Origin: a virus
Reading direction: 5' to 3' (one strand)
Virus genome (UHGV): UHGV-0072281
DNA: 64,000 bases
A program made the position numbers and the translations under genes. Below the pieces are notes generated by a model. That model did not search any database, was not told where the DNA came from, and saw nothing but the letters and a program-made list of their open reading frames with translations. Of the stretch, positions 11,302 through 49,193 are shown one piece after another; the first letter of the stretch is position 1; each line of letters starts with the position of its first letter.

Positions 11302-11304
11302 ATT

Positions 11305-11346
11305 TAAGGGAGTCTTAATAGACTCCCTTAGCTTTTTCTTTTTTTT
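11305..11346 (+). terminator. intrinsic terminator
   Basis: Hairpin taagggagtc-ttaata-gactccctta followed by long T-run. Confidence 0.8.
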
Positions 11347-11382: not shown

Positions 11383-12234
11383 ATGATTGACATTTATACA
11401 GATTACGCCGCCGTTCTTACCGTCAATCGTTCGGAGGAACGTGCTGCACCGTTTCTGGATTTAGTCACGCTTTGCATGGACTACGGATACGACGTTGCGT
11501 TAAGTGATGTATACTGGCAACCGTCTTCTGACCCGGCTGACGAAACGGTTCGATTAGAAGGCATTATCGTTAAGTGTGCGGTAGCGTTAGGTAACCGTCT
11601 AGGGATAGCGTTAAATCCCCAGGAAGTTTACCATAAACCCAAAGAAACCGTACGTATTTTGGACGGTATTACTTCCAAGTTTGAAGAGTTTGAAGACACC
11701 GATACGCTTTATGGTATTGTGATGTCGGGCGAGACGCCAGAATACATTCTGGAAAGTATCTGTCGTTACGTTTACGGCGATGACAATATCCATTTCGAAG
11801 ATTTGGTTGTTCGGGTGTCTCCTCGTGTAATGACAGTGATGAGGAACTACCTGTCTTCTGTGACCGTAGACGAACAATTAGCGGCAGGTAACGACAGACG
11901 TTTGTCACGTATCGCTGATTACCTTCGTTTATATCCTCAAAACCCCTCAGCGTTCGTATTCCTTAACTTACCAGACCTGCCTGATTTGACCGTGGTTCAG
12001 CAGTCGCTGGTCTTCGATGTTGAAGACTACTCGGAAGCCGAGCTGTTGGTAATGTATGCAGTGGGCTTAACGATTATCGATAACGAGGATTACGAAGATG
12101 CGTATGGTGCGTTATCAGAGAACCTGGAGAAGCTCAACAACGAAGGGTTAAAACCGATTCCTATCTTGCAACCTGCTCTGGAAAGCTTGAAGGAGATTTA
12201 TAAGGTAGCGGAGGAAGACAATGACGAGATTTGA
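11383..12234 (+). CDS. hypothetical protein
   Basis: ATG 11383 preceded by GGAAAAGG; 283 aa; 14-nt overlap with next gene. Confidence 0.7.
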   Translation: MIDIYTDYAAVLTVNRSEERAAPFLDLVTLCMDYGYDVALSDVYWQPSSDPADETVRLEGIIVKCAVALGNRLGIALNPQEVYHKPKETVRILDGITSKFEEFEDTDTLYGIVMSGETPEYILESICRYVYGDDNIHFEDLVVRVSPRVMTVMRNYLSSVTVDEQLAAGNDRRLSRIADYLRLYPQNPSAFVFLNLPDLPDLTVVQQSLVFDVEDYSEAELLVMYAVGLTIIDNEDYEDAYGALSENLEKLNNEGLKPIPILQPALESLKEIYKVAEEDNDEI

Positions 12235-13522
12235 GTTTCTGGTGGCGGCTTGTAAAGCTGAAGCCTGGCGTCGTTTAGTGTGGCGTATTGCAATATTCAA
12301 CATGTCAGTGTTCCCGTCGAATCGTGAAGAACCTGAAGCGTTCGATATTACGTATATCGACGGAATGCCGCACTATTACGCGGTAGAAGATGGGAAAGGG
12401 GATTGGCAGCCCATTACTGATGGCGTGAAAGACCAAGAACTGTTTATTCCCGAAGAACAGTTTGAGTTGAAAGTCGATGACTACCCAGGATTAGAAGGAC
12501 CGATTCCTACTACCGTAGGACGTTATATTTTTAACTGGGTTGTTATCTGGTATGCGTTTGGTACACGCTTGCCGTATATGGGTATTTCACAAAACCCGTT
12601 AGAGTATCGTAAAGAGATGCACCGTCGTTGTTTGGATCACGAAACCGATGAACCTGAGAACGAAGGTGCTATTCGTCCGAGCATGATAGAACGCTTTGTA
12701 AGCGGCTTACACGAACTTGCACCGTTAACCGCTGGTATTGCACCAACAGGTACACTTAGAAGCCTTACGGTGCATCCTGATGCGTATAAAATACGTGATG
12801 CGTTGCTGTTAAAGCATAAGGACGAGTTAGACGACCCAGCAGTGATTGTTAAGATAGAAAAAGCACTGGACGAACTGGATAAACAGTGGCTGTCAGGTGA
12901 CCAATCTATCGAGTTCTATAACTCACCAAAATCACGAATGCGTCGACGTAAGTTGATGCTGATGTACGGGATTGAATCGTCTTTCCAGGAAGGGGGTAAC
13001 TATACGTTAATTCCTAACGCACTGGTGGAAGTTGATAAGGCGGGAATGGATAACCTGGTCGCGAAGTTTAACTCTATTCGCGAAGGTTCGTTCTCGCGTG
13101 GTGCAGAAACCGCGAAAGGTGGGGAACAGGTACGTATCATTCAGATGATTTTCCAGAACCACCGAATCGTTGCAGGTGATTGCGGGACGAAACTCACGCA
13201 CCCTGTGGTTATCACAAAAGACAACGTAAAACGTTACGTTGGGATGAACGCGATGGTTAATGGGAAGTTAACCTCCTTGACGGAAGAGTTTTTGAATAGT
13301 CAGCTAGGGAAAGTTGTGCGTCTACGCCGACCCATCTTATGTCAATACGGCCACATCGACTGCTGTACTGCGTGCTCCTCCGAAGCGAAAGGTGAAGAAC
13401 CTCGCGCTATCGCGGCGGATATTTCGTCAGCGTTCTCTAACGTTATGTCCGTGGCAATGGCCGCAATGCACGGTAAAGAAACCGTCGTTCAAGAATACGA
13501 TCCGTTGATCCATATCACCTAA
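12221..13522 (+). CDS. hypothetical protein
   Basis: 433 aa; GAGGAAGA SD before ATG. Confidence 0.8.
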   Translation: MTRFEFLVAACKAEAWRRLVWRIAIFNMSVFPSNREEPEAFDITYIDGMPHYYAVEDGKGDWQPITDGVKDQELFIPEEQFELKVDDYPGLEGPIPTTVGRYIFNWVVIWYAFGTRLPYMGISQNPLEYRKEMHRRCLDHETDEPENEGAIRPSMIERFVSGLHELAPLTAGIAPTGTLRSLTVHPDAYKIRDALLLKHKDELDDPAVIVKIEKALDELDKQWLSGDQSIEFYNSPKSRMRRRKLMLMYGIESSFQEGGNYTLIPNALVEVDKAGMDNLVAKFNSIREGSFSRGAETAKGGEQVRIIQMIFQNHRIVAGDCGTKLTHPVVITKDNVKRYVGMNAMVNGKLTSLTEEFLNSQLGKVVRLRRPILCQYGHIDCCTACSSEAKGEEPRAIAADISSAFSNVMSVAMAAMHGKETVVQEYDPLIHIT

Positions 13523-13534
13523 GGATTATTAGTA

Positions 13535-14044
13535 ATGGCAACCAAAGACATTTCTACCCAAGATGCTCGTCCCGCTGCTGTTAAGCGCTCCGCAGAAGCG
13601 GCAGTAGCTTATAGCCAAGATGACTCTTATCAGGTAAACCTTATTGCTGCGCAGTTAGACGAAGCAGGGAATACCATCGGTACCAACAAACCGAAAAACA
13701 CGTCGGAAGCAGACGACGCTTTCCGTAAACTGCATCAGTCTTTCCGTAGCCTGTTTGAACTGCGTGGTCAGGCGTTTATCGACGCTTTTAACGTTTTCGT
13801 TGCTGCTGCGATTAAACACAAGCGTAGCATCTTCTATTACCCGAATGTGAACTACCACCTGGATTGGTTCCACGATTCTGCTGAACGTGAAACCTACGTG
13901 GTGTTTATCAACATGCTGGTACGTTTTGCTAACTCTCAAGATAAAGCAAACTTCGCACAGCGTGACAACGTTAACCGTCTGCTGCAACGCGTAACTGACC
14001 CAGAGCTGCAACAGCTGCTGGCGTACTGCTTCAACGCGGCTTAA
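13535..14044 (+). CDS. hypothetical protein
   Basis: 169 aa; AAGGA SD; followed by terminator. Confidence 0.8.
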   Translation: MATKDISTQDARPAAVKRSAEAAVAYSQDDSYQVNLIAAQLDEAGNTIGTNKPKNTSEADDAFRKLHQSFRSLFELRGQAFIDAFNVFVAAAIKHKRSIFYYPNVNYHLDWFHDSAERETYVVFINMLVRFANSQDKANFAQRDNVNRLLQRVTDPELQQLLAYCFNAA

Positions 14045-14050
14045 TAAGCA

Positions 14051-14096
14051 TTACCCTACTCCCGAGAGGAGTAGGGTAGCTTTTATTTTTTCTTAG
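14051..14096. terminator. bidirectional intrinsic terminator; copy 1 of a duplicated 47-bp module
   Basis: Hairpin taccctactcc-cgaga-ggagtagggta then gcttttattttttc; stop codon of minus gene (TTA 14093-14095) inside module. Confidence 0.8.
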
Positions 14097-15874
14097 TGGG
14101 TGGTTTTGATGTATTCAAACGGATCGGTAATAGCCTCACCTTGACGACGTAAGAATGCTTCTAACACAACGTTCTTATCTGGCAGTAAGAAGAAGTCTGT
14201 TGCAATTTCCATTGCATTAACACGCCCTGCGGTAAGGTTAATCCCTACACGACGTCGTACTTCTTCAGGAACACCATGAATACTCAGTAACTCGATTAAC
14301 GTTGTTTCACGAGACTGGTTCATCATGTTCGTTGCAGAAGGATACGCCTGGGTTAAATCCGCATCTGCGGTTTGCCCACGGAATGCAGTGTAGAAATCAT
14401 CAAACTCTTTAATGATTCCTCGCAGGCCGTTTTCCGCGTTCATACACGCAGTTAACGTAACAATCCAACCGTCCGTACCGATAACCTCTTCATCGAAATC
14501 ATTACGCATTGCACTACCTACACAACCGATAACTAATCCTTGTTCATAAAGGTAATAGGTGTAAGCAATACAAATACGTTTTGGTAACGAAGGGAAGATA
14601 TCGTACATCGAATAACCCGCCAGTACGGAAATTGCTGAAGACAAGTCGTTCGTCTTTTTATCCAACAACACAATCATCAGGTTATCGAAGATGTTGTAAA
14701 CGCAGTATTCGAGCGGGAACTCTTTCTGTGCTTTTAAGTGCCATTCCAGTTTCTCCTCGTAAGGCAGCTCTGGCAAGTCTAACTTGTTTAAGCCCAGTTC
14801 AGTTTCCAGAATAGCGTTAAGTTTGTAAGAAGGACGTTGACCTTCGTGAACCCGCAGTGAACGGAACAGACACATTGCATCCACACAGTAGAACGATGCG
14901 GTACAATAAAGTACGTGCCACTGTTGTGAAGGCGCTTTGGTCAGTGATTTCGATTCCGTTTTCTTCGATGCTTCGTCTTTCTTGAAGTAAACACGACGGT
15001 ATTGTTTCGGTACATCAGGATGACAAAAGACGTCTTCCGGCGGAATCCCTGCGGCTTCTAGTGCTTCTAACATGCGTGAAATATCGAACTCGTGGTTCCA
15101 TGCGACTAATAAGTCAGGTAGACGAGGGTGAATCTCTTCAAACATGCGTTGAATACAGCAGCCGGAGTTTAAGCATTCGTAAACGAAGATTTTATATCCG
15201 GCAATAACGTCTTTGATTTCGGTCTTAGAATTGCCTTCCTTGTCTTTGCCACGAAAAGCAATTTTAGAAAGTAACTCCTTCGCACGTTTAATTAGTCGCG
15301 CTTCGAAGTTCTCACGACCGCAACGCGCAACGTAGTCTTTCGTTGCGAAGAAATGAATTTCGTCATCCAAAACAAAACTCATAATCCAAGGGTCTCGAGA
15401 TTTGTCTTCTTCTCGAGTTTCCACGTCGTATACGCAAATACGGTTAGGTGAAACGGCGTTAGGCCATTTCTTTATATATCTTTCTTTAATCCAGCTGGTG
15501 ATGGGTAAGTCAGCCCAGTAAACGTACGGAGAGGTACAGACTTGACGTAATGAACGTTTTTTGTCAGGAAATCTTGCTCCTAGACCCATCTGGATAGTTT
15601 GTGACATCATCACATCCGTGGTCATGTATTCCTGACACTTACTGCGTTCTTCGTATTCTTTCTTTTCTTGATGGTTACGGTGTTGTGGTAAAGTAATGTA
15701 GATAGGCCGTTTCAGATTTTCACGCATGACGATACGCGGGATGAATCTGCCATCTTTAGTATGGACGACCTCCTTTATGAGCACGAAGTCGTTTTCTTTC
15801 TGCTGATCGGTTGCGTACGAAACAAATTTGCACTCTTTGGCAATAACGTCTTCCGGTGCGTAATAGTTATTCAT
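14093..15874 (-). CDS. family-B DNA polymerase-type 3'-5' exonuclease domain protein (possible N-terminal piece of a split DNA polymerase)
   Basis: 593 aa from ATG at 15874; Exo I-like ICVYDVETRE, Exo II-like WNHEFDISRML, Exo III-like YCVDAMCL in order; no YGDTDS-type polymerase motif seen. Confidence 0.5.
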   Translation of the reverse strand: MNNYYAPEDVIAKECKFVSYATDQQKENDFVLIKEVVHTKDGRFIPRIVMRENLKRPIYITLPQHRNHQEKKEYEERSKCQEYMTTDVMMSQTIQMGLGARFPDKKRSLRQVCTSPYVYWADLPITSWIKERYIKKWPNAVSPNRICVYDVETREEDKSRDPWIMSFVLDDEIHFFATKDYVARCGRENFEARLIKRAKELLSKIAFRGKDKEGNSKTEIKDVIAGYKIFVYECLNSGCCIQRMFEEIHPRLPDLLVAWNHEFDISRMLEALEAAGIPPEDVFCHPDVPKQYRRVYFKKDEASKKTESKSLTKAPSQQWHVLYCTASFYCVDAMCLFRSLRVHEGQRPSYKLNAILETELGLNKLDLPELPYEEKLEWHLKAQKEFPLEYCVYNIFDNLMIVLLDKKTNDLSSAISVLAGYSMYDIFPSLPKRICIAYTYYLYEQGLVIGCVGSAMRNDFDEEVIGTDGWIVTLTACMNAENGLRGIIKEFDDFYTAFRGQTADADLTQAYPSATNMMNQSRETTLIELLSIHGVPEEVRRRVGINLTAGRVNAMEIATDFFLLPDKNVVLEAFLRRQGEAITDPFEYIKTTH

Positions 15875-15945
15875 GTTTTCACTCTCAAATCTAGCGGCTG
15901 CTATACTGATTTGTGGGTAATGTAATTTCTCAAAAGGAAACACAA

Positions 15946-17280
15946 ATGGGATACTGGCAAAATCACATTGCATCAGTTGCGGATGCAAAGGTTGTAGCCG
16001 CAGAATCGATTAAATTCCAAGATAAAAAGAAACTCGCAGAACTGGCAGACATTATTGCTAAATTTCGTGCAGCCGGAGACTTTAGTCCGGCCGGTTACGA
16101 GAGTTCTGGTGTTTCTGATTGGGTATTTAAAACCAATGGTATTAGCATTAACTTTAAGAACGGTAGCGAACTCGGTTTATTCGACGTTGCCTTTGCAGGT
16201 GTAGAACCACCTAAACTGGACGCTAACAGTCCGGTAATTGCGTCAATGGCGCGTGCACTGTACGCAGGTAATAAAGACCTGGACATGTACAGTAAGTTCA
16301 TTAAAGAAAACGAACTGAACAGCAGCATTGACGATTCCAGTGCGAAAATCAGCGGCGACTTGAGCAAAGTCAGTTCCCCGCTTTACCTGACCCCGGTGCT
16401 GTTGGAGAAACTGGAGCTCACCGATTTGGAGGTTGCTGCGGTAATCCTTCATGAAGTCGGTCACGTTTATTATTACTTCCGTACGCTGATGCGTACCGTG
16501 GTAACGGATTTACTGGCAGACGCTGCGGCTAACCGTATCATGGAAACCGAAGACCCGGCTGTTCGTTTACGTGTGGTTAAAGACGTTGAACGAATGCTGA
16601 ACACGAAAGTGAATCAGCCAGAGACCATCTGCACTGAGTACAAGAAAGAAAACGTCTACATGCACCTGGTAACAGATTTGCTGTTAGACCGTCCGTTCAT
16701 TAGCGGTAGTCAAGGCTTTGCAAACCGTACCTGGGAACGTGCTGCTGACGACTTCGCTGCCCGCTTTGGTGCTGCCCCGTACTTAGCTTCTGCACTGTAC
16801 AAAATGGAAACCAGCCCGTTCTATCTACTGCGTAACTCGTCGTATATGAACATGGGTGTCCATTTGACGATTGAGTTGTTCCGTGTGACTGCGCTGATTG
16901 CCCAAGCTGCCATTCCGATTCTTCCGGTTATCTCTGTTACGTTTGGGATGATTCTGAACGACCCAGATAACACCATCTACGATCCGCCGCAGGAACGTTT
17001 TGAAGCGATGCGCCGTACGCTGGTAGAAGAACTGAATACCATCAAAGACAAAAACACGAAAGCGGCTAACGAGCAACGTAAACGTATTCTGGATGGTATC
17101 GCGGTAATTGATCGAATTCTACTCACGGTTAAAGACAAAGATAACCTGTATCAGTTTATCTGGAAGACGCTGACACCGAAAGGGCGTCGTGACCGTGCTG
17201 CGGTGGATTATCAGCGCGCTATCGGGAAGTATATGTCGAATGACCTCCGTATCGCATCTGCCATGTTTAACGTCGATTAA
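15946..17280 (+). CDS. HExxH zinc metallopeptidase-like protein
   Basis: 444 aa from ATG 15946 (AAGGAAA SD); motif AAVILHEVGHVYYY. Confidence 0.4.
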   Translation: MGYWQNHIASVADAKVVAAESIKFQDKKKLAELADIIAKFRAAGDFSPAGYESSGVSDWVFKTNGISINFKNGSELGLFDVAFAGVEPPKLDANSPVIASMARALYAGNKDLDMYSKFIKENELNSSIDDSSAKISGDLSKVSSPLYLTPVLLEKLELTDLEVAAVILHEVGHVYYYFRTLMRTVVTDLLADAAANRIMETEDPAVRLRVVKDVERMLNTKVNQPETICTEYKKENVYMHLVTDLLLDRPFISGSQGFANRTWERAADDFAARFGAAPYLASALYKMETSPFYLLRNSSYMNMGVHLTIELFRVTALIAQAAIPILPVISVTFGMILNDPDNTIYDPPQERFEAMRRTLVEELNTIKDKNTKAANEQRKRILDGIAVIDRILLTVKDKDNLYQFIWKTLTPKGRRDRAAVDYQRAIGKYMSNDLRIASAMFNVD

Positions 17281-17294
17281 GTAAAGGTAAAACC

Positions 17295-17738
17295 ATGACG
17301 CATAAAGTTTCTCTGAATTCGTTAGTTCTTGATTTTAAACGCGCTAACGAAGGTAAAGGTGTCCAGGCGCAGCGTGCCCTGACTGGCCTGGTTGCATTCT
17401 CGCTGGCGTATAATGCCGATATGCCAGACAACGGACCGTATGGTTCTAATGAAGTTTCACAAATCAAACTTCGTCCACTGATGAAAAACGTGGTATCCGA
17501 CGTTAACGAACTTTACTGCGTTGACTTAGGCACTGTCGAAGACCTGACCGTTGCGTTGTTCTGTAATCGTTACGACAGCGCCTGGGGTGGACGTCGTGCA
17601 ATTGAAAACTTCTCCGTACGTGAGATTTTCAACGAAGCCTTAGGTGATGATGTTTGGAACACTGTCAACTTGTGGCTGGAACGTTTTGTCGACGCAGTGA
17701 AATTCTACATGGATGAAACGCGAGGCAAATTATCATGA
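17295..17738 (+). CDS. hypothetical protein
   Basis: 147 aa; AAAGG SD; ATGA overlap with next gene. Confidence 0.75.
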   Translation: MTHKVSLNSLVLDFKRANEGKGVQAQRALTGLVAFSLAYNADMPDNGPYGSNEVSQIKLRPLMKNVVSDVNELYCVDLGTVEDLTVALFCNRYDSAWGGRRAIENFSVREIFNEALGDDVWNTVNLWLERFVDAVKFYMDETRGKLS

Positions 17739-19408
17739 GTATGGAAATGACAGCAAACATTGCACAACCGCAATGGAAACTCGACGAACTTCCAACTATT
17801 ATCGAACAGCGAATGGAAGAACGTATCGATTCTGTCAGCCAGCTCAACCTCTACATGCAGCGTAACGAAGCCGATTTGATTTACGGTTCACGTATTATCG
17901 CGCAGATTGAAGCGATTCTTCGTGAAGTTCGTAAAGCGGGTCTAAACCGCGACGTTGCCGTAGCGACGGAATCTTTGCGTCCGGGCACTATCCCGAAAGC
18001 GGTGCAGAGCATCCTGACGTCGAACTACAGCCGTACTCATCAGAAAGAAACCGTCATCGCGCTAGAGTCTTACGCGAACTTCGGTAAGATCAGTCTTATC
18101 GTGATGGTAATGATGGGGATTATGAAAATCCTGAACTGGATTATCAGTAACGCTGTACCGTTTGCAGGGGCTGCTGACGTAGATGGGGACGAGTATCGTG
18201 ACAAACTCTTAGAGAAGATCGATGCGGTTCCTTTCATTGAACGTCTGAAAATCACCGCGCTGAAAGAAGCGTATATGGACGCGTCGAAGGGACTGAAAGA
18301 CGGTGAACTGAATAACCTGGAATTGGCTATTCTGATGGCCGATGAAGTCCTGACGAACATGAACGCAGAAGACCTGTTGAATAAGCTTAGCGCAGCTCTG
18401 GGACGTTCTCCGTTCGTAGGGATGTTTAAAGACTACACGAAACGTCGTCAGAATGAACAGCAGGTTATCCACGATATCCTCGATACGTTGCTGCGTACTA
18501 ATATCGGTTGTGCGGTATTCAGTCAGCAGGTTTGTGACGAAGTGTACAAAGCTTTACCGGCGGACGTTCGTAAAGCAGGTATCAACATTCCTAACGAAGC
18601 GTTCTACCGCCAGATGGGAAGAAACCTGGAGAGCTTCTCCGCAGGGTTAAAACGTTTAGATCAGTCGTTAAAAGACCTCAAGTCGTATTACTTCTCGGGT
18701 GACCGCACGCTGGGTACGGATCAAGAAAACCGCATTAGTGCAACGGGGATCGTTCAAGCACTGGCGTTGCTTAACGGCGAAATTGAAATAGCGTTAACCG
18801 ATTTTGCATCGTGTCGTGGTGCACCGCTACCAACGATAATGGTGAAATCCGATCGTGACTTAATCGGTTATTCGTCTCGAGAGTTCGGTAATGGATTCAT
18901 CATCGCTTCTGCGGGGGTTAACTCGTATTTCGGTTCTGCGGCTAACATGGAAATTATGCGCCAGGAACTGAGCTTTACCAGCGGTGATTCTCGTGAATTG
19001 TTAGCGTGTCTGATTACGTTAGCTCGCAGCGGGATTACTAAAGGGCCAGCCGATACGTCTATTGACCGCTTCAAAGTGGTGGAGAAACAGATCGAGAAAG
19101 TGGTTAGCCAGTTGAAAGACATGTCACGCCAATCTCGTTCTGGTATGAACAGCAAAGCTTGGCAGATGATGGAACAAGCGTTCCGTGACGAAGCACAACG
19201 TTCAGATCTGTACGAATTGGGCTTTGGTCGTGAATTGACGACGATGACCGTGATGGACCCAGAACGAAACGTGTGGGATTCTGTTGCGTTTACGACGGAA
19301 CTGATTAAGTCCTGGACAACTGCCGCCGGTGCTCTGGCGACGATTCTGAAACGGGCTAAGAACAACCCGCTGGTAAAAGGTGGGAAGTTTAATAAACTCG
19401 TCGATTAA
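17735..19408 (+). CDS. hypothetical protein
   Basis: 557 aa ORF, translationally coupled to upstream gene. Confidence 0.8.
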   Translation: MSMEMTANIAQPQWKLDELPTIIEQRMEERIDSVSQLNLYMQRNEADLIYGSRIIAQIEAILREVRKAGLNRDVAVATESLRPGTIPKAVQSILTSNYSRTHQKETVIALESYANFGKISLIVMVMMGIMKILNWIISNAVPFAGAADVDGDEYRDKLLEKIDAVPFIERLKITALKEAYMDASKGLKDGELNNLELAILMADEVLTNMNAEDLLNKLSAALGRSPFVGMFKDYTKRRQNEQQVIHDILDTLLRTNIGCAVFSQQVCDEVYKALPADVRKAGINIPNEAFYRQMGRNLESFSAGLKRLDQSLKDLKSYYFSGDRTLGTDQENRISATGIVQALALLNGEIEIALTDFASCRGAPLPTIMVKSDRDLIGYSSREFGNGFIIASAGVNSYFGSAANMEIMRQELSFTSGDSRELLACLITLARSGITKGPADTSIDRFKVVEKQIEKVVSQLKDMSRQSRSGMNSKAWQMMEQAFRDEAQRSDLYELGFGRELTTMTVMDPERNVWDSVAFTTELIKSWTTAAGALATILKRAKNNPLVKGGKFNKLVD

Positions 19409-19415
19409 AAAAGAA

Positions 19416-19462
19416 GTACCCTACTCCTTATCGGGAGTAGGGTAGCTTTTATTTTTTCTTAG
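19416..19462. terminator. bidirectional intrinsic terminator; copy 2 of duplicated 47-bp module
   Basis: Hairpin taccctactcc-ttatcg-ggagtagggta then gcttttattttttc; stem and flank identical to 14051-14096, loop differs. Confidence 0.8.
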
Positions 19463-22413
19463 TCTGCGCTGGTATCGTGACGGTTGTAAGCGATAACAAT
19501 ATCGTCTTTCAGACCGATGTCACCACTGGCTTCAATATCCAGTTTCTTACCAATCGTTGCACGTGCAGCTTCGGATACTACAGTAAACAGACGCATGTCT
19601 TTGTCTGGCCCCATCGCATCCAACTCAACGCCGATAATCGACGTGTCAAGCGTTTCGCTGAGCTTATTACCAATCTCTGTTGCCGAGATAGTAAGATGTG
19701 AACCCAAGTAGTCGTTGATAACTTGAGACGTTTTCTTACGGATCTGCGTTAACAGATCGCTGTTGCTACGGTTAGCCGCAGTCAGGTAATAACGAACGGT
19801 AAACTGGTTTTCAGCTGGTATCGGCGTAACCACCCCGTCTTCGGTACGTGCATCGATATAACCCATCGTGGTGATAGGAACGAAATACCCTTCCGTACGC
19901 TCTAACAACATCGGTTTTAACGTCGGTAGAACCACGGTCACGTAGTTAACGATATTCTCAATAACTGCGTTCAGATAGGATTTCGCAGACGCTGTGGTAG
20001 CGAATTTATAACGTGCGTCGAAGACCGCCATTTCACTACGGAACTTAATAGAACGAGATTTCGCAATCTTAGGATTACCGTACTCGTCTTTTACTAAGTC
20101 CCCTTCGTGGTGTAGGATAATCTGCTGGCCGGTTTCGTCAAGCTTAGGATCGCCTTTACGGTGTTCGTAAGTGATTTGTAGCGGTGGTGTACGGCCTGCG
20201 TCGTACGTGTAAACCGGAACCCCATTCTCATCACGTTTCACCACGTCAATTTCCCACGTCGCTAACACGTCTTTGTCGTAATACTCGTAGTTGATGCTGT
20301 CAGTAACAGCACGAGCTTTACGCCAATAGTACGTCATCGCTTTACCCAGTTCGATTTTGAATATCTCGTGAGTAATACCGATAGCGTCGCGAGAAGGCGG
20401 TATGATTAACGCATCCATCTCTACACGTTCGTAGTTCCCAGGGTAATAACCTGTACAACCGTAGAACAGGTTAAAATCTGTCAGCAGTGCGACAGGGGTT
20501 TCCGTTGGGTTACTTCCGTTAATACGGGTGTTGGTCAGTACCAGTTCGTCGTTACGGTCAACGTCCAGGTTAGTTTCCAGCAAGAACTCCCAAACACGTT
20601 CACTGCCCTGCTTACCGACTAACGTACCGTTAATGTACGCCAAGGTGTTATCGGAATTACGAGGACGGAAAGACAGTTGTGCAAAGACTTGGTCATCAGC
20701 CAGTGCCTGGTAAGGTGCTTCTGATTTCGTAACCGTACGCAGCACATAACCCGCTTCCGTTTTCTCGATAGTGTAGTCAGCAGTAACGACACTGAGCTCC
20801 GTCGAGACGTTGGTCGCAATAAAGCGTTTGGAGTTTAATACCGGTTTATCCAACTGGTAAATACGTACGTCAATCGCTTTGTTGTTAATGTCAACAACGT
20901 AATGGAACGGTGTAAACAAATAACGGTTAGTGTTTGCTGCGTTAATCAGGTCTTCCTTACGCATGGTCTTCGCTAACACCGTCATTTCGGCATCTACAGT
21001 TAGACTGGTATCCGTAAAGCGATACAGCGTGTCAGGAAGAATGGTCAGGCGATTACCGTTGACTTTCACCGTCGGGAGATTAACCAGCTCGTTCCAGGAG
21101 AAATAGAACGGGGCAGTAATCGTTCCTATCGGTGAACTGACGTTAGCAATCGTCGATTCCAACATCGGTGCGGTCATGAAGTACGTACGACTGGTCACGT
21201 AGTCGTTAGGTTTAGACAACATGAGACCGTAATCAGAAACCGTAGCCTCAAGCTGCTTTTCTGTCACGGGCAGTTTACGTGCACCTACGGCGTTGTTAAC
21301 AACGCGAGTACGTAAATCACTGAACGAAAGCTGACTACGACCACCCGATAGCATCTTCCCAGCTTTTGCTGCAAGCTGTTTAATAGAGAACGCTTTAATC
21401 GGGTTGATATAGTTCGCGTCGTATTCTTCGTTTAAATCGCGTAGGCTGAAACTATACTCGTCGGACGGATACGCAGAGATGTCCAATTCCAACGGCCCTA
21501 AGGTCGTAAAGACGTCCATCCTGATAGTCCCACTGACGAGATTCTTCGCCATGTAAATAGATGGAATCGTACAACGGATGTTGCCGTTACCCACCTGAAT
21601 CAATGCTGTTGGTGTGTTCGGGTCGTAAACATCACGACTGTGGGTGTGTTGAATCTCTACCCACTTGTTGCTGCCCGTTGCCTTCATCCAAACACGAACA
21701 TAGAAGAACTTGTTAGTGTAACTACGCGTCATGACAAACGTGTTGCTACCTTCGACGGTGTTACTTTCTTCTTTTACCGCATACTGCATCACCGGAATAT
21801 GGATAGCCAGTAGCTGTGAAGATGTTGTGTTAGCGGACGTTAGTTCCCATTCCAGTGCGTTCGTGGAAACTGGTGAAATCGGTGATTGTGTTTCAGTAAT
21901 CCACAGTACCTGGAAAGCCGGGTTCTCGTTCGTTCCGTACGGGAGTACACGGATTTCGATTGGATATTGAATAGCAAACGTGTAACCAGAAACCGTAAAG
22001 ACCGTGTCACGTGGGATAACGACTTTACGAACCCCCGCGATTTGCAACGGATACGCTTTCGAGATTAAGCTGTCAACGTCAATTAACAGTAACAGTTCTG
22101 TAGTAGCAGGCTGCGCAAAGACGTCAACGTAATCCACGTCTGACATGTGTCGGAACAGGTCATCGTAAGTCTGCGCCATTGACGGGAACGTTTTAGGAAT
22201 AGATTCCTGGAGTCCCATCAATGTAGCGTGCCCCATCATTGTTCCCATTTCTGCCAAATAAACGACAGGGTCGGTAGGGTCACGGAGATAAATCTGACCA
22301 TCGGCATCTTCAACATCTTGAAGCTGGTTTAGCAGCATTGTCTGCATCGCCGCAGGGTTGTGTGCGAACAGCAGAAGTTTCTTTGCCAAAGTATCGTAAG
22401 TTGTTGAACTCAT
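19459..22413 (-). CDS. hypothetical large protein (possibly virion structural)
   Basis: 984-aa ORF; TGATG-type junction with upstream minus-strand gene. Confidence 0.8.
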   Translation of the reverse strand: MSSTTYDTLAKKLLLFAHNPAAMQTMLLNQLQDVEDADGQIYLRDPTDPVVYLAEMGTMMGHATLMGLQESIPKTFPSMAQTYDDLFRHMSDVDYVDVFAQPATTELLLLIDVDSLISKAYPLQIAGVRKVVIPRDTVFTVSGYTFAIQYPIEIRVLPYGTNENPAFQVLWITETQSPISPVSTNALEWELTSANTTSSQLLAIHIPVMQYAVKEESNTVEGSNTFVMTRSYTNKFFYVRVWMKATGSNKWVEIQHTHSRDVYDPNTPTALIQVGNGNIRCTIPSIYMAKNLVSGTIRMDVFTTLGPLELDISAYPSDEYSFSLRDLNEEYDANYINPIKAFSIKQLAAKAGKMLSGGRSQLSFSDLRTRVVNNAVGARKLPVTEKQLEATVSDYGLMLSKPNDYVTSRTYFMTAPMLESTIANVSSPIGTITAPFYFSWNELVNLPTVKVNGNRLTILPDTLYRFTDTSLTVDAEMTVLAKTMRKEDLINAANTNRYLFTPFHYVVDINNKAIDVRIYQLDKPVLNSKRFIATNVSTELSVVTADYTIEKTEAGYVLRTVTKSEAPYQALADDQVFAQLSFRPRNSDNTLAYINGTLVGKQGSERVWEFLLETNLDVDRNDELVLTNTRINGSNPTETPVALLTDFNLFYGCTGYYPGNYERVEMDALIIPPSRDAIGITHEIFKIELGKAMTYYWRKARAVTDSINYEYYDKDVLATWEIDVVKRDENGVPVYTYDAGRTPPLQITYEHRKGDPKLDETGQQIILHHEGDLVKDEYGNPKIAKSRSIKFRSEMAVFDARYKFATTASAKSYLNAVIENIVNYVTVVLPTLKPMLLERTEGYFVPITTMGYIDARTEDGVVTPIPAENQFTVRYYLTAANRSNSDLLTQIRKKTSQVINDYLGSHLTISATEIGNKLSETLDTSIIGVELDAMGPDKDMRLFTVVSEAARATIGKKLDIEASGDIGLKDDIVIAYNRHDTSAD

Positions 22414-26433: not shown

Positions 26434-27705
26434 ATGGCAAATTTCGCAAAAACTCGCGCCGCTCGTGAATCGATGGAAGCGGCCGATGAAGTAATCGACG
26501 GTATCAGCAACGTTGAACCGGCAGAAGAGAACCTGGACGTCCAGCTTGCAGACGTAGCCTCTATCGACGGTCAGCTCGAACAGCTGGAAACCGACGGTGA
26601 AACCCTGGCTGCCGATACTGAGCGTACTGAAGACGCTATCGATCAGGCGGAAGAAGCCGTTGCTAACGGTGAAGAAATGCCGGAAGAAGCGGTTGCCCTG
26701 CAAGAAGTGGCTCAGGAATCCATCTCACGTCGTTGGAACCTGGAACGCACCAAACTGGCTCGCGAATCCTATCGCCGTGGCCGTGGCATGACTGCTGCTG
26801 CGCAGGAAGGCTGGAAAGAAACCCTGAAAGGTCTTTACGAGCGTTTCATTCAGTTCTGTAAAGAAGTGATTGCGAAGATCAAAGACCTGAAACTGAAATA
26901 TTTCAACGTCGGTAAGACCGCACAGAAACGTGCGAAGAAATATCAGGAAATGCTGCGCAAGCTGGGCAAACAGAAAAATGATACCATCTCCGGTGGCTTC
27001 ATTACTAAGCTGTCCATTGAAGGTAAATTCGATGCAGCTGGTTCTATCGCTATCGCGAAAGAAGTAACCTCTGGTAAAGCTAAAGGTGCTATTAGCGCAC
27101 TGGAAAAACAAGCTGGTGAAGCTGTTACTGCTGTAACCAAAGGTGACGATGAAGCATTCAAAGCAATGCGTGGCGATCAGCCGGTAGAACTGTTCGGTAA
27201 AGCAGCGTCTAAACTGCATAACCTGCCGAACTTTGAAAACGGCGATGCGTCTAAACTGCTGGCTCTGCCGGGTAACGCATACGTTCAGTCCGGTACTAAA
27301 GAACTGGCTGGCGGTCACAAATTTACCGCTGTTGCATTCATGAGCACTGGCGATGCCTCTGACGATAAAGACGTGAAAACTCCGTCTGTTTCTGAAATGG
27401 CTGGCGCTGCTTCTTCTCTGGAATCTATCGGTAAAGGCTTCGAAGCTGTACTGAAAGACTTCCGTGCTTACGATGCAGAGATTGCAAAACTGCAACAGGC
27501 CGCTGAGAAAGCTGCTAACGCGCTGAACAGCGAAAAAGACGAAAGCAAGTGGGATGGCCTGCGTAATGCTCGCCAAGCTGCTGACCAGTCTGTTAAGAAC
27601 TACCAGACCCTGAACCGTGCCGTTAGTTATGTTGCTAACACCGTAATTAGCGGTTTGAACGGTTACCTGGGCGCTGGTATCGGTGCTTACGAAAAATCTA
27701 AGTAA
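26434..27705 (+). CDS. abundant-looking paralogue A: acidic N-terminal propeptide-like region, coiled-coil middle, conserved C-terminal GAGIGAYEKSK
   Basis: 423 aa; AAAGGAAA SD; visibly enriched for ctg/cgt/ggt/aac/gaa codons; N-term MANFAKTRAARESMEA..; motif ALQEVAQESISRRWN. Confidence 0.9.
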   Translation: MANFAKTRAARESMEAADEVIDGISNVEPAEENLDVQLADVASIDGQLEQLETDGETLAADTERTEDAIDQAEEAVANGEEMPEEAVALQEVAQESISRRWNLERTKLARESYRRGRGMTAAAQEGWKETLKGLYERFIQFCKEVIAKIKDLKLKYFNVGKTAQKRAKKYQEMLRKLGKQKNDTISGGFITKLSIEGKFDAAGSIAIAKEVTSGKAKGAISALEKQAGEAVTAVTKGDDEAFKAMRGDQPVELFGKAASKLHNLPNFENGDASKLLALPGNAYVQSGTKELAGGHKFTAVAFMSTGDASDDKDVKTPSVSEMAGAASSLESIGKGFEAVLKDFRAYDAEIAKLQQAAEKAANALNSEKDESKWDGLRNARQAADQSVKNYQTLNRAVSYVANTVISGLNGYLGAGIGAYEKSK

Positions 27706-27785: not shown

Positions 27786-29048
27786 ATGGCGAATTTCTAC
27801 AAAAACAAAATTGCTCGTGAGTCAATGGAAGCGAACTCTACTGTCGTTCCAGATGGTATTGAGCTGCCAGCAGAGTCTATCGAAGGTACTCTGGCTGATA
27901 TCGAGCACGACACTAAACCGATCGAAGCGCTGGACGCTGACGCAGAGCTGCTGGCGGAAGACGGCGACGAAACCGATGCGCAGCTGGACGTTCTGGACGA
28001 AGCTCAGGCTTCCGCTGACGGCGAAGGTGGTGAAGATGGCGACGATCAGATGGACGCTGAAGAAGACATGCCGGACGACGCTGCTAAAGCGCTGGATGTT
28101 GCTCAGGAATCCATCCGTTCTCGCTGGAACTTCGAACACCGTTCTTCCGTTGCTCACGAATCTTACGGCGCTCGTAACCGTCGTCAGGTTGCTCGTGAAT
28201 CCCTGTGGGACGACATTAAAGCCTTCCTGAAACGTTTCTGGGAATGGCTGAAAGAGCAAGGCCGCAAACTGAAAGATCGTTGGCTGAAATTCCACAACCA
28301 GGGTAAATCTATCCAGGCTCGTGCGAAGAAATACGACGAAGCTATTCGTAAACTGGGCAAACAGAAGAAAGATGAAATCTCCGGTGGTTTCATCAAGTGC
28401 CTGTCTGTTGACGGTAAGTTCGTTGGTAACGATGTACCACGTCTGAAAGACGCGATGAGCCGTGTTTCTTCTTTCTACAGCAAACACGTTCCAACTCTGC
28501 TGGCTTCTGGTACCGCTCTGGTTGCAGACGTATCCAAAGCTAACGGTGCTCAGGCTGAGCAACTGCGTGCTGAATTTGCTGCGCTTTCTAAAGAAGATGG
28601 CGACAAAGAATTCCGCCTGGGCAACATGGTTATGCAGACCAACTTCGATGAAGATGGTGGCTTTAGCTTCACTCACGTTGAAGCAGAAAATGCTGTTGAA
28701 ACCAGCGTGAAAACTCCGTCTGTAAGCGAACTGGCTAAACTGAACGGTTTCTTCACCGATCTGGGTAAACAGATTGAGAAGAACGTTCTCGAATACCGTA
28801 AGACCGAGCAGGCTCGTGAGAAGTTCGCTCAGTCTATCGAGAAACTGCTGAAAGAAATCGATAACGTCAAGATCGATGAAAAACCAGAACTGACTGAAGG
28901 CGTACGTGTTGCACGTCGCTATGTTAACAGCATTCGCAGCGCAGTATCCCTGTGCGAGAAAGTTGTTGCTTCTGCTCAGAAAAACCTGGTTAGCGGCGTT
29001 AGCGGTTATATCAGCGCCGGTATCGCAGCGTACGAAAAGTCTAAGTAA
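27786..29048 (+). CDS. abundant-looking paralogue B of 26434-27705
   Basis: 420 aa; N-term MANFYKNKIARESMEA.., motif ALDVAQESIRSRWN, C-term SAGIAAYEKSK; same codon bias. Confidence 0.9.
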   Translation: MANFYKNKIARESMEANSTVVPDGIELPAESIEGTLADIEHDTKPIEALDADAELLAEDGDETDAQLDVLDEAQASADGEGGEDGDDQMDAEEDMPDDAAKALDVAQESIRSRWNFEHRSSVAHESYGARNRRQVARESLWDDIKAFLKRFWEWLKEQGRKLKDRWLKFHNQGKSIQARAKKYDEAIRKLGKQKKDEISGGFIKCLSVDGKFVGNDVPRLKDAMSRVSSFYSKHVPTLLASGTALVADVSKANGAQAEQLRAEFAALSKEDGDKEFRLGNMVMQTNFDEDGGFSFTHVEAENAVETSVKTPSVSELAKLNGFFTDLGKQIEKNVLEYRKTEQAREKFAQSIEKLLKEIDNVKIDEKPELTEGVRVARRYVNSIRSAVSLCEKVVASAQKNLVSGVSGYISAGIAAYEKSK

Positions 29049-29069
29049 TCGTTGATTATTTAGCGTAGA

Positions 29070-29118: not shown

Positions 29119-29168
29119 AAAAATAATTTCAGATATATATTACTTAAGTGAGATTACACAGTAATCTC
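29119..29168 (+). promoter_or_regulatory. conserved promoter-like element, copy 1 (core TTTCAGATATATATTACTTAAGTGAGA)
   Basis: Near-identical to 37372-37423 over ~50 nt; located between terminator and next gene. Confidence 0.5.
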
Positions 29169-37371: not shown

Positions 37372-37423
37372 ATTAAAATATTTTCAGATATATATTACTT
37401 AGGTGAGAGAATTACGTAATACT
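37372..37423 (+). promoter_or_regulatory. conserved promoter-like element, copy 2 (core TTTCAGATATATATTACTTAGGTGAGA)
   Basis: Matches 29119-29168 at nearly every position; 48 nt upstream of ATG 37456. Confidence 0.5.
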
Positions 37424-38704: not shown

Positions 38705-38731
38705 TAGGGGTGTGACAGCACCCCTTTTTAC
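38705..38731 (+). terminator. intrinsic terminator
   Basis: Hairpin aggggtg-tgacag-cacccct then ttttt. Confidence 0.7.
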
Positions 38732-38847
38732 GCTTTAACTTTTCCAAAGAGAAGTTAAAGCAGTAAGGACTGTTGGCGCAGTCCTTACTTGTCATCGCTA
38801 TTACAGAAACGTGATAGCACAATTCTAATTTTTAGAGGCGATCAGAA

Positions 38848-39015
38848 ATGTTCGACAGTATTACACAAATTTTTAACACTACCGTAAACAATCACGCTCA
38901 GCAAGCGAAGTTTAATGAACGATTAAGGGAAGTTCAACAATTAGGATTAAATAAAAGATTAAAATCTTCCAATAATCCTCGAGTACAGATCTTCACCGAA
39001 AGGAGAAGTAACTGA
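38848..39015 (+). CDS. small basic protein, paralogue 2 of 3 (55 aa)
   Basis: MFDSITQIFNTTVNNHAQQAKFNERLREVQQLGLNKRLKSSNNPRVQIFTERRSN; shares QLG-NKRLK-S-N---QI-TE-RS with paralogue 3. Confidence 0.6.
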   Translation: MFDSITQIFNTTVNNHAQQAKFNERLREVQQLGLNKRLKSSNNPRVQIFTERRSN

Positions 39016-39023
39016 TAAAAACA

Positions 39024-39053
39024 AGGTGAGCTGTTGGAGCAGCTCACCTTTTA
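39024..39053 (+). terminator. intrinsic terminator
   Basis: Hairpin aggtgagctg-ttggag-cagctcacct then ttt. Confidence 0.65.
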
Positions 39054-39111
39054 CAACGCCATTACGTTTCCGTAATGGATTTCTTTAATCACCCTACAAA
39101 GAGGGCTTACC

Positions 39112-39285
39112 ATGAACAATGGTTACTACTTTACTGACAAAATGCTTGCAGAACAATATGCAGCAAAAACCAATTTACAGCAACGTATCTACGAGTATAG
39201 TCAACTCGGTGCGAATAAACGATTAAAACCATCAACCAACCGTTTCACACAGATAATCACTGAAAAAAGGAGTGAACGCTACTAA
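39112..39285 (+). CDS. small basic protein, paralogue 3 of 3 (57 aa)
   Basis: MNNGYYFTDKMLAEQYAAKTNLQQRIYEYSQLGANKRLKPSTNRFTQIITEKRSERY. Confidence 0.6.
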   Translation: MNNGYYFTDKMLAEQYAAKTNLQQRIYEYSQLGANKRLKPSTNRFTQIITEKRSERY

Positions 39286-39420
39286 CTAATAAAAGGGGGT
39301 GTGCTACCACCCCCTACTTAGTTCAGCAGTTGTCTTTCGTTCATAAATATTAGATGTCTTGTTTTTTTTTGCTTTTCGGGACGCATAAGGGGTCGTAGGG
39401 GGAGCCGAAGCTCCCCAGAC

Positions 39421-40983
39421 TCAAAAGAGTTCGTCACCCATACCGCCTGTAAAGACGTTAATCGACGATGCAGTCACTGTTTCTTCTTTATCGCAATCCC
39501 ATGGCAGAATGCCAACTTCACGGAAAGGTATTACTGTATAATGGTAAGCTTCTTTAGTATCGATAATTGTACGGTGTTTACCACGTTGTACTTCTAAGTA
39601 ACTATGCCCATTGACAACACGTTTGTTAAAATACATCTCACCGTCAGCTTCGTTATCCAAGCTGGAGCAGTTATCGTAAAGACCGCGACCTGGTAAGTTC
39701 TTACAGAAACTTGCTGGGTCTAACGCTTTTAATTTTTTGCCTTCTGGTGAGATTTGGTGTGGCGCTAACAAGAAACCACGGTTACGTACTACCTGGATGT
39801 TTCGAGCGATACGATAAATTTCTTTAATGTCGCTACCGGCAATCCCGTTACCGTGACCTGCTTTACTGATAGTCCCGAAATAGTCTCCGCGAATCCCAGC
39901 TACATGATAACCTCGACGCTTTAAGTCCAGTATTAAGTCGTTTAAGTAATGTATTTTAAAATCTGAGTTTGTGTGTTTCTGAAAGATGTACTCCCAACCG
40001 TTAGCCCGCATTTTACTACAGAGGTAGTCCGACATTTTTGTGTTGTGTAAAGCTTTCTCTTCGTCGGTAGCGTTTTCAGAAGCAACCATAACCGGTGCTT
40101 CACCTTCAAAATGACCGTAGAGCGCTTGGTACGCATACGCCAAATTAACGTCCAGTTCGTTCTCTAAACTTAAATCGAGAATAACCGGCTGTAAATCCCC
40201 TTTAACGTTTTCCATTACCTTTTCAGGCGTATTGAATACCGGAATACTGATAGACAACAACAGACTAAAAAGCGATTTACAGTTAAAGGGCAGTGCAGGC
40301 ATTAGCCAAAGTTCTTCAGTAATCCCTTTGTTACAACCCAACATCTGGTTAATGGCTTTCCATCCGGTACGTAAACCATTACCCGCTGCTTTCTTACTGA
40401 TTGAGTCGAACACATGTACGAACGGTGCACGGTTATCCGTAATAAGTTCACCTACGAGTGAGGGAATCTTATTATGAGAGCGTTCACTGAACGTAGAGAG
40501 ACTATCTCTGAGGTCGTTGAGCGCTGTTTGTAAATCAACGCGCGTTTCGGTTCCGTTCAGTGCGCCTAACGTACGACCTAATTTTTGTTTCAGTTGTACG
40601 CCTTGAATAGCTTGACGTAATTGGAAGTAGTATTGTGCTACTTGACGGTTAAGATGCTCGATGCGTGCTTCTGGTTCTTCTGGAATATCATCTTCCAGGA
40701 ATTTGGTAATCGTATCGTATAGAGGACGTATTTGCGTAGTGGCCAGTTTCAAACGTTTCATGACGTTTGTGTGGTCGTAAGGCATACCGCCGTCTATGAT
40801 GGATGTGATGATATCCTTGATTTCGACGAGGGCGGCACGTTCGTCACCTTCCTCTACGTAATCAGGAAGCTTAGCCTCTAACAGCACTTTTCTTATGACC
40901 TCGTGATCCTTCTCAGGGTCGGTCAGCAGACTTTCAGTGTATAGTGTGGCTAATGCGGTTATCAACATCATTTTGTTATTCAT
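39421..40983 (-). CDS. hypothetical protein
   Basis: 520-aa ORF; start codon 13 bp from divergent gene start. Confidence 0.8.
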   Translation of the reverse strand: MNNKMMLITALATLYTESLLTDPEKDHEVIRKVLLEAKLPDYVEEGDERAALVEIKDIITSIIDGGMPYDHTNVMKRLKLATTQIRPLYDTITKFLEDDIPEEPEARIEHLNRQVAQYYFQLRQAIQGVQLKQKLGRTLGALNGTETRVDLQTALNDLRDSLSTFSERSHNKIPSLVGELITDNRAPFVHVFDSISKKAAGNGLRTGWKAINQMLGCNKGITEELWLMPALPFNCKSLFSLLLSISIPVFNTPEKVMENVKGDLQPVILDLSLENELDVNLAYAYQALYGHFEGEAPVMVASENATDEEKALHNTKMSDYLCSKMRANGWEYIFQKHTNSDFKIHYLNDLILDLKRRGYHVAGIRGDYFGTISKAGHGNGIAGSDIKEIYRIARNIQVVRNRGFLLAPHQISPEGKKLKALDPASFCKNLPGRGLYDNCSSLDNEADGEMYFNKRVVNGHSYLEVQRGKHRTIIDTKEAYHYTVIPFREVGILPWDCDKEETVTASSINVFTGGMGDELF

Positions 40984-43872: not shown

Positions 43873-43884
43873 CTTTCTATTATT

Positions 43885-43911
43885 TTTCGGATAGATATTA
43901 TTAAAGAGAGA
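43885..43911 (+). promoter_or_regulatory. conserved promoter-like element, copy 3 (TTTCGGATAGATATTATTAAAGAGAGA)
   Basis: 22/27 identity to copies 1 and 2; again directly downstream of a terminator. Confidence 0.4.
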
Positions 43912-49134: not shown

Positions 49135-49190
49135 AAAAGCTACTCCGACCCCAGAAGGGTCGGAGTAGGCTCGAATTATTTTTTTTTTGC
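49134..49190. terminator. bidirectional intrinsic terminator
   Basis: 12-bp stem ctactccgaccc-cagaa-gggtcggagtag flanked by A-run upstream and T10 downstream. Confidence 0.85.
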
Positions 49191-49193
49191 TAT

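Follow-up and report, generated by a model that had tools for sequence, protein, structure and literature searches.

The stretch of jumbo phage DNA analysed here, the 64,000 nucleotides of virus genome UHGV-0072281 referred to below as the window, carries two closely similar 47-bp hairpin elements at junctions where genes converge (J1 and J2). These are probably compact intrinsic terminators, predicted to end transcription, that belong to a palindromic family whose members have been kept alike by gene conversion or template switching. The model proposes that each element fills the gap between two genes converging on it, and that nascent RNA from either strand would form one and the same G+C-rich helix, 11-12 bp long, with a U-rich stretch immediately after it. 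At 19417-19463 (J2) transcription is predicted to stop in both directions, and at 14052-14097 (J1) a stop is predicted mainly for plus-strand transcripts, because the minus-strand U-tract is poor. The two elements would be alike because they are members of one palindromic terminator family. In the lineage of the window homogenisation has given the copies a single exact stem, probably through short-patch gene conversion or template switching between dispersed copies, and the same palindrome-driven DNA processes may flip the loops and keep the arms perfectly complementary.

Anatomy and predicted folding of the two elements

Direct reading of the sequence bears out the paired 47-bp elements described in the initial annotation, with stem and tail identical and the loops different. 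The first copy (J1) consists of TACCCTACTCC at 14052-14062, the loop cgaga at 14063-14067 and the 30-mer GGAGTAGGGTAGCTTTTATTTTTTCTTAGT at 14068-14097; the second (J2) consists of TACCCTACTCC at 19417-19427, the loop ttatcg at 19428-19433 and the identical 30-mer at 19434-19463. Common to both is an exact 11-bp inverted-repeat stem, TACCCTACTCC/GGAGTAGGGTA, the loops alone being different, and the 3' arms GGAGTAGGGTA at 14068-14078 and 19434-19444 close hairpins that span 14052-14078 and 19417-19444. A leading G, which had been counted as part of the element, precedes the stem only in the second copy (G at 19416); the base at 14051 is T. Behind each hairpin lies the same 19-nt T-rich plus-strand tail, GCTTTTATTTTTTCTTAGT (14079-14097 and 19445-19463), which contains the stop codon of the converging gene. 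The reverse-strand TAA, read as TTA on the plus strand, is embedded alike in both copies, as had been claimed, at 14093-14095 for the 626-aa DNA polymerase gene and at 19459-19461 for a 984-aa structural gene. The plus-strand genes, of 169 and 557 aa, stop at 14042-14044 and 19406-19408, and the modules thereby occupy the entire gaps between convergent stops, 48 nt at J1 (14045-14092) and 50 nt at J2 (19409-19458).

With a loop of 3-9 nt allowed, the stem had 2 matches in the window and 0 in 100 shuffles, and a repeat search recovered the 30-mer as an exact two-copy family with a third member at 49162-49191 (70%). Rfam gave no match at gathering score anywhere in the window.

The features of an intrinsic terminator are present at both copies, namely a stable G+C-rich stem-loop (a perfect stem of 11-12 bp) and a U-rich tract directly 3' of it (GCUUUUAUUUUUUC on the plus strand). 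RNA folds of both copies on both strands reach -21.9 to -24.2 kcal/mol, with z = -3.9 to -6.0, and a simple terminator scan flags all four combinations of strand and site. At J2 an A-tract (AAAAAAGAAG) precedes the hairpin and a T-tract follows it, and 9 and 8 T occur in the 12 nt past the stem on the two strands; at J1 the plus strand has 10 T in those 12 nt and the minus-strand tail, AUGCUUAUUAAG, only 5. The prediction of terminators at convergent junctions is supported by a perfect G+C-rich stem and T-tract placed between two stops and by a hairpin in 17/17 relatives (see below). The further proposal that both are bidirectional fits J2 and is weak at J1.

The tail also contains a shorter string, CTTTTATTTTTT, that is found exactly six times in the window, each time after a different hairpin (14080, 19446, 29868, 31610, 37319 on the minus strand, and 43860), where chance would give 1.0. 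The string looks like this phage's common U-tract consensus, broken by a single A, and in this form the tail recurs after hairpins other than J1 and J2.

With regard to the neighbouring genes, the 169-aa gene (13535-14044, plus strand; phrog_7825, function unknown) closes a plus-strand block in which an RNA polymerase beta-like subunit gene also lies (12221-13522), and its transcript would end at J1, on which the DNA polymerase gene (14093-15973, minus strand; phrog_3011) converges. J2 lies between the 557-aa gene (17735-19408, plus strand; phrog_8131, function unknown) and the 984-aa gene (19459-22413, minus strand; phrog_3248), whose orthologues in Asesino and SPN3US are annotated as virion structural proteins. 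The window is ~70-73% identical in DNA sequence to Erwinia phages Asesino and phiEaH2 and Salmonella phage SPN3US. Elsewhere in the window, the adjacent paralogous genes at 26434-27705 and 27786-29048 share a 76-nt stretch of 71% identity (26671-26746 and 28062-28137), and their position suggests that they correspond to the two genes listed as internal head proteins for phiEaH2 and SPN3US.

A hairpin family at convergent junctions of related phages

Seventeen related loci were fetched via the neighbouring RNA polymerase subunit gene, and a perfect hairpin was found at both junctions in all of them, with 5' arms composed almost wholly of C, T and A. The stems vary among lineages and nevertheless remain paired, with double-sided compensatory change at 6 of the 10 consensus pairs of J2. 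For J1 the MAFFT/RNAalifold alignment was poor, the stems differing by indels, and the hairpins were compared sequence by sequence.

The complete genomes of phiEaH2 and SPN3US were then assembled and all sites with a hairpin plus T-tract listed. Across the whole phiEaH2 genome the core ACTCC-N3-8-GGAGT occurs 14 times against 1.1 expected, and it is present at 9 of 14 convergent-junction terminators versus 3 of 43 others (Fisher p = 3.6e-5). In SPN3US, arms ending in CTCC occur at 8/13 convergent and 4/40 other terminators (p = 4.7e-4). Several stems are kept junction by junction between the two phages, for example TTACCCACTCC, CTACCTACTCC and CGAGTA(G/C)CCC. The consensus of the family may be written roughly as AATAAAAG-CTACC(C/T)(T)ACTCC-N3-8-GGAGT(A)(G/A)GGTAG-CTTTTATTTT, with a loop of 3-8 nt (5 and 6 nt in the two window copies), and the best explanation of these sequence comparisons is that, among jumbo phages of the Asesino/phiEaH2/SPN3US group, the family would mark the majority of convergent junctions. 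At convergent junctions the 5' arm is C-rich and G-poor in 14/14 cases in phiEaH2 and 13/13 in SPN3US, compared with 17/43 and 26/40 elsewhere. Exclusivity of C-rich 5' arms to convergent junctions was considered and rejected, as they are present at tandem junctions of the window (38475, 56751 and 63463). G.U wobble pairs were not rarer in convergent than in other terminators, a comparison that the stem ends confound.

The related stem reported at 49140-49168 exists as described, within a hairpin, AGCTACTCCGACCC cagaa GGGTCGGAGTAGGCT (49137-49171), that lies between the end of a plus-strand block and a minus-strand 905-aa virion gene. It overlaps the J1/J2 stems only in CTACTCC/GGAGTAG; the family core ACTCC/GGAGT is retained, and a second small palindrome replaces the loop. 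The hairpin is kept in the window's near relatives (clades A and B, defined below) as AGCTACTCCGACCC cagaa GGGTCGGAGTA(A/G)GCT. A scan for the exact stem gave no match, the relatives having GGAGTAA and not GGAGTAG, as seen in the orthologous loci. Its proposed link to J1 and J2 is backed by phiEaH2, where the orthologous junction carries a canonical family hairpin, TACCTACTCC cgaa GGAGTAGGTA. The 49140 hairpin can be regarded, on these sequence grounds, as a diverged family member and a copy of neither J1 nor J2.

Beyond the phage group, a search of 185,579 bacterial and archaeal genomes found the exact stem in a single unrelated low-GC metagenome-assembled genome (MAG), and it is therefore not a host element. 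A scan of IMG/VR for the 7+7-base core CTACTCC-N-GGAGTAG returned mostly unrelated contigs among the matches listed and has no value as a census, and a second protein-anchored fetch of loci, with phiEaH2 gp176, did not reach the lineage of the window.

Several other recurring hairpins were noted in these genomes. A second recurring stem of phiEaH2, GGAGACC ttcg GGTCTCC, is found in one-directional terminators at 21271, 60733, 86801 and 92249 (record coordinates), and UUCG tetraloops dominate the terminators of both phiEaH2 and SPN3US. Strong hairpins cluster among open reading frames (ORFs) of 50-57 aa at 38730-39420 of the window, and their tops are alike: 38762-38789 has CTGT tggc GCAG, and 39023-39050 has CTGT tgga GCAG. 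Next to the DnaB-like helicase gene (39421-40983, minus strand), the junction that precedes it holds AGGGGGTG..CACCCCCT and GGGGAGC cgaa GCTCCCC, and the corresponding junction of phiEaH2 has a family hairpin.

Homogenisation, loop inversion and cassette borders

The closer relatives of the window are known only as IMG/VR contigs, which form clade A (3300045988_078609, 98% identical to the window, and 3300045988_095954, 96.5%) and clade B (3300045988_113438, ~82%, and 3300029126_000001, ~79%). In a tree of the RNA polymerase subunit the two clades together branch outside the phiEaH2/SPN3US pair. The motif search suggested for the two elements finds further copies of the stem at other junctions of this lineage: six junctions carry the CCCTACTCC core and five the full 11-bp stem, the exact stem being at J1-J5 and a 9-bp core at J6. 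The contigs concerned share 78-98% identity with the window. In both clades the J1-J5 stems are all exactly TACCCTACTCC, and every ACTCC..GGAGT copy found in their contigs is of the TACCCTACTCC type.

The orthologues of J1-J5 in phiEaH2 and SPN3US carry three variants, CCCACTCC, CCTACTCC or CCCTCTCC. At J1, phiEaH2 has TACCCACTCC and SPN3US a different stem, CCTCTCTACC; at J2 the two have CTACCCACTCC and CTACCCTCTCC, respectively, and at J3, J4 and J5 the phiEaH2/SPN3US stems are TTACCCACTCC, CTACCTACTCC and CCCTCTCC. That five junctions have orthologues with three variants indicates homogenisation specific to the lineage of the window, and the window's J2 form is derived, since two outgroup loci (L033 and L037) have CTACCCACTCC there. 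Independent convergence of five or six loci by paired changes in two arms is very unlikely, which leaves two options: loci were copied from one another (by gene conversion or template switching), or a co-evolving reader selected the shared form. In relatives 96-98% identical the J1 and J2 tails differ by 1-2 bases in the T-run, so the 30-nt identity in the window is in part a single-base coincidence or a conversion event.

The loops have behaved differently from the arms and are frequently inverted between near relatives. The J1 loops cgaga and tctcg are reverse complements, as are ttttcg and cgaaaa, or tccg and cgga, at J2; the same pairs recur at J4 (ttttcg and cgaaaa) and J6 (cgga and tccg). 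An unrelated terminator at 11304-11331 has the loop taat, against atta in a related locus (L025, 9086-9113). Among genomes 96-98% identical, exactly flipped loops are seen in 3 of the 5 hairpins between 5.6 and 25 kb of the window. Template switching is a published cause of both loop inversion and one-step compensatory change (PMC8794818).

Family hairpins also flank genes of variable presence. In an Asesino-like contig (L174, 16087-17115) two of them bound a 308-aa ORF (phrog_6160, function unknown), and in clades A and B a 182-aa ORF between J6 and J4 has one on each side (L172, 5542-6185; also L173, L009 and L013). Both ORFs are absent from phiEaH2; the 308-aa ORF has no Pfam match, and no endonuclease or transposase could be recognised in it with Pfam or PHROGs. 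This arrangement suggests that family terminators may serve as recombination borders for gene cassettes. J1 and J2 themselves bracket a conserved syntenic block.

Competing explanations and known systems

The similarity of the two elements had initially been attributed either to a duplicated terminator or to a site for a sequence-specific factor. A duplication is not borne out, as the intervening 5.4 kb is not duplicated, the left flanks are unrelated, the tail is generic and the stem has at least five to six copies per genome in the lineage. A one-off recent duplication, or a chance likeness of independent hairpins, would account for the presence of only two exact copies in the 64-kb window. 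However, zero chance matches are expected, the same stem stands at further junctions in related genomes, and both junctions already have family hairpins in distant relatives; the further copies, the hairpins of the relatives and the excess of the core in phiEaH2 refute this explanation, which is extremely improbable. It is also very improbable that the modules represent a small, non-autonomous mobile element, of the repetitive extragenic palindrome (REP/REPIN) or miniature inverted-repeat transposable element (MITE) kind, whose copies transpose into intergenic gaps. The palindrome is indeed multi-copy and extragenic and contains GTAG/CTAC words, and duplicated copies flank two inserted ORFs. 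However, the hairpins occupy the same orthologous junctions in all relatives, where the sequence alone changes. Neither target-site duplications nor direct repeats flank the J1 and J2 modules, and the presence/absence polymorphism of a MITE is not seen, both junctions having a hairpin in every one of the 17 relatives. Further, no transposase is annotated in the phiEaH2 and SPN3US records (window proteins were not scanned one by one), the copy number is low (~6-14), and the lone MAG aside the stem is absent from the bacterial and archaeal genomes searched. For annotation, this shows that non-coding repeats with identical copies in phages of this kind do not necessarily reflect duplication or mobile elements.

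A sequence-specific factor encoded by the phage could instead recognise the conserved helix at convergent junctions, the copies co-evolving with it; candidates would include a factor for termination or 3'-end processing, an RNase, or a protein involved in the stability or export of RNA. In favour of such a factor, different junctions and genera share the sequence of the stem as well as its structure, the family shows strong enrichment at convergent junctions, where the polarity of the arms is uniform, and six loci in one lineage converged on one sequence. The loop, however, is 3-8 nt long, free in sequence and often inverted, which fits poorly with a dimeric dsDNA-binding protein or with RNA binders that read loops, and the spacer lacks the fixed half-site spacing of the palindromic operator of a dimeric DNA-binding protein. 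The variable loop and the several stem variants per genome (at least three coexist in phiEaH2 and in SPN3US) argue against the factor site; a perfect A-form helix offers little to read, and no candidate factor was identified. This explanation thus seems unlikely. Unlikely, too, is a clade-specific code for termination or 3'-end formation where transcription units collide, written in the polarised C-rich/G-rich helix (ACUCC-loop-GGAGU), with either a phage factor or the non-canonical multisubunit RNA polymerases of the phage itself as its reader; if it were true, the lineage-wide switch of six loci to one sequence would represent co-evolution with the reader. Several points weigh against the favoured explanation, a family of intrinsic terminators kept alike by DNA-level copying. 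Plain terminator function offers no explanation for the uniform C-rich 5' arm at convergent junctions, and the minus-strand U-tract of J1 is poor (5 T in 12). Gene conversion is deduced from pattern only, and that pattern would equally arise if a co-evolving factor exerted directional selection. For the window's own lineage the census, drawn from contigs, is incomplete. The literature search found no work on transcript 3' ends, terminators or transcriptomes of SPN3US-like phages, and termination by the multisubunit RNA polymerases of jumbo phages has been little studied (PMC7598289).

If the favoured explanation holds, the family would provide defined and conserved candidate terminators for phage-encoded multisubunit RNA polymerases, whose termination is almost unstudied. 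Bidirectional action is predicted for some of these and unidirectional action for others, and the stems vary naturally. The family also offers a clean natural case of regulatory hairpins shaped by three DNA-level processes, namely homogenisation of dispersed copies, loop flip-flop and use as cassette borders.

Among known systems, the REP sequences and bacterial interspersed mosaic elements (BIMEs; REPINs) of enterobacteria are extragenic palindromic repeats, often between convergent genes, and are possible terminators or mRNA stabilisers. REPs are imperfect palindromes present in hundreds of copies and spread by RAYT transposases. By comparison, the phage family has 6-14 members (the core occurs 14 times in phiEaH2), which are perfect palindromes and keep fixed orthologous positions, with no transposase annotated in phiEaH2 or SPN3US and none of the palindromes in host genomes. 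Inversions of hairpin loops also occur in non-coding chloroplast DNA. The evolution of hairpins by template switching likewise involves loops that are reverse-complemented among relatives and arms that change together, although that work concerns rRNA genes (PMC8794818), whereas here the flips affect phage terminators and are very frequent (the 3 of 5 hairpins noted above).

The promoter early stem-loops (PeSLs) of T4-like phages are, similarly, short, conserved, multi-copy modules with a terminator hairpin, able to recombine, and they border gene-cassette indels (PMC2839356, PMC4122927). Two such cases occur among the relatives here, whereas J1 and J2 lie at the ends of a conserved syntenic block. 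However, PeSLs are composites of a terminator and an early promoter in hyperplastic regions of an unrelated phage group (PMC2839356, PMC4122927), and J1 and J2 are full palindromes without a promoter between convergent conserved core genes; nothing but hairpin and tail occupies their 48-50-nt gaps, at which both flanking genes end. At 29068/29120 and 43835/43878 the window does have composites of a terminator and a promoter-like element. An AT-rich motif, TTTCAGATATATATTACTTAAGTGAGA, is repeated at 29120-29153, 37375-37408 and 43878-43911, each copy shortly past a terminator-like hairpin and ~45-60 nt before an ATG. AT-rich early promoter motifs of ~10 nt are known in jumbo phages (PMC7598289), and TTTCAGATATATATTACTTAAGTGAGA is a candidate early promoter for the virion RNA polymerase that, with the preceding terminators, would form composites of the PeSL type.

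The closest resemblance in layout is to the bidirectional intrinsic terminators of convergent genes in bacteria and in phage LUZ7, in which one perfect hairpin is likewise set between an A-tract and a T-tract and between two convergent stops and is predicted to halt both transcripts (PMC9163698). Those terminators have not been reported as a sequence family, whereas here one stem recurs across junctions and genera with uniform polarity, its terminating function being predicted from sequence. The family is a variant both of bidirectional terminators and of the repeated regulatory hairpins exemplified by PeSLs and REPs.

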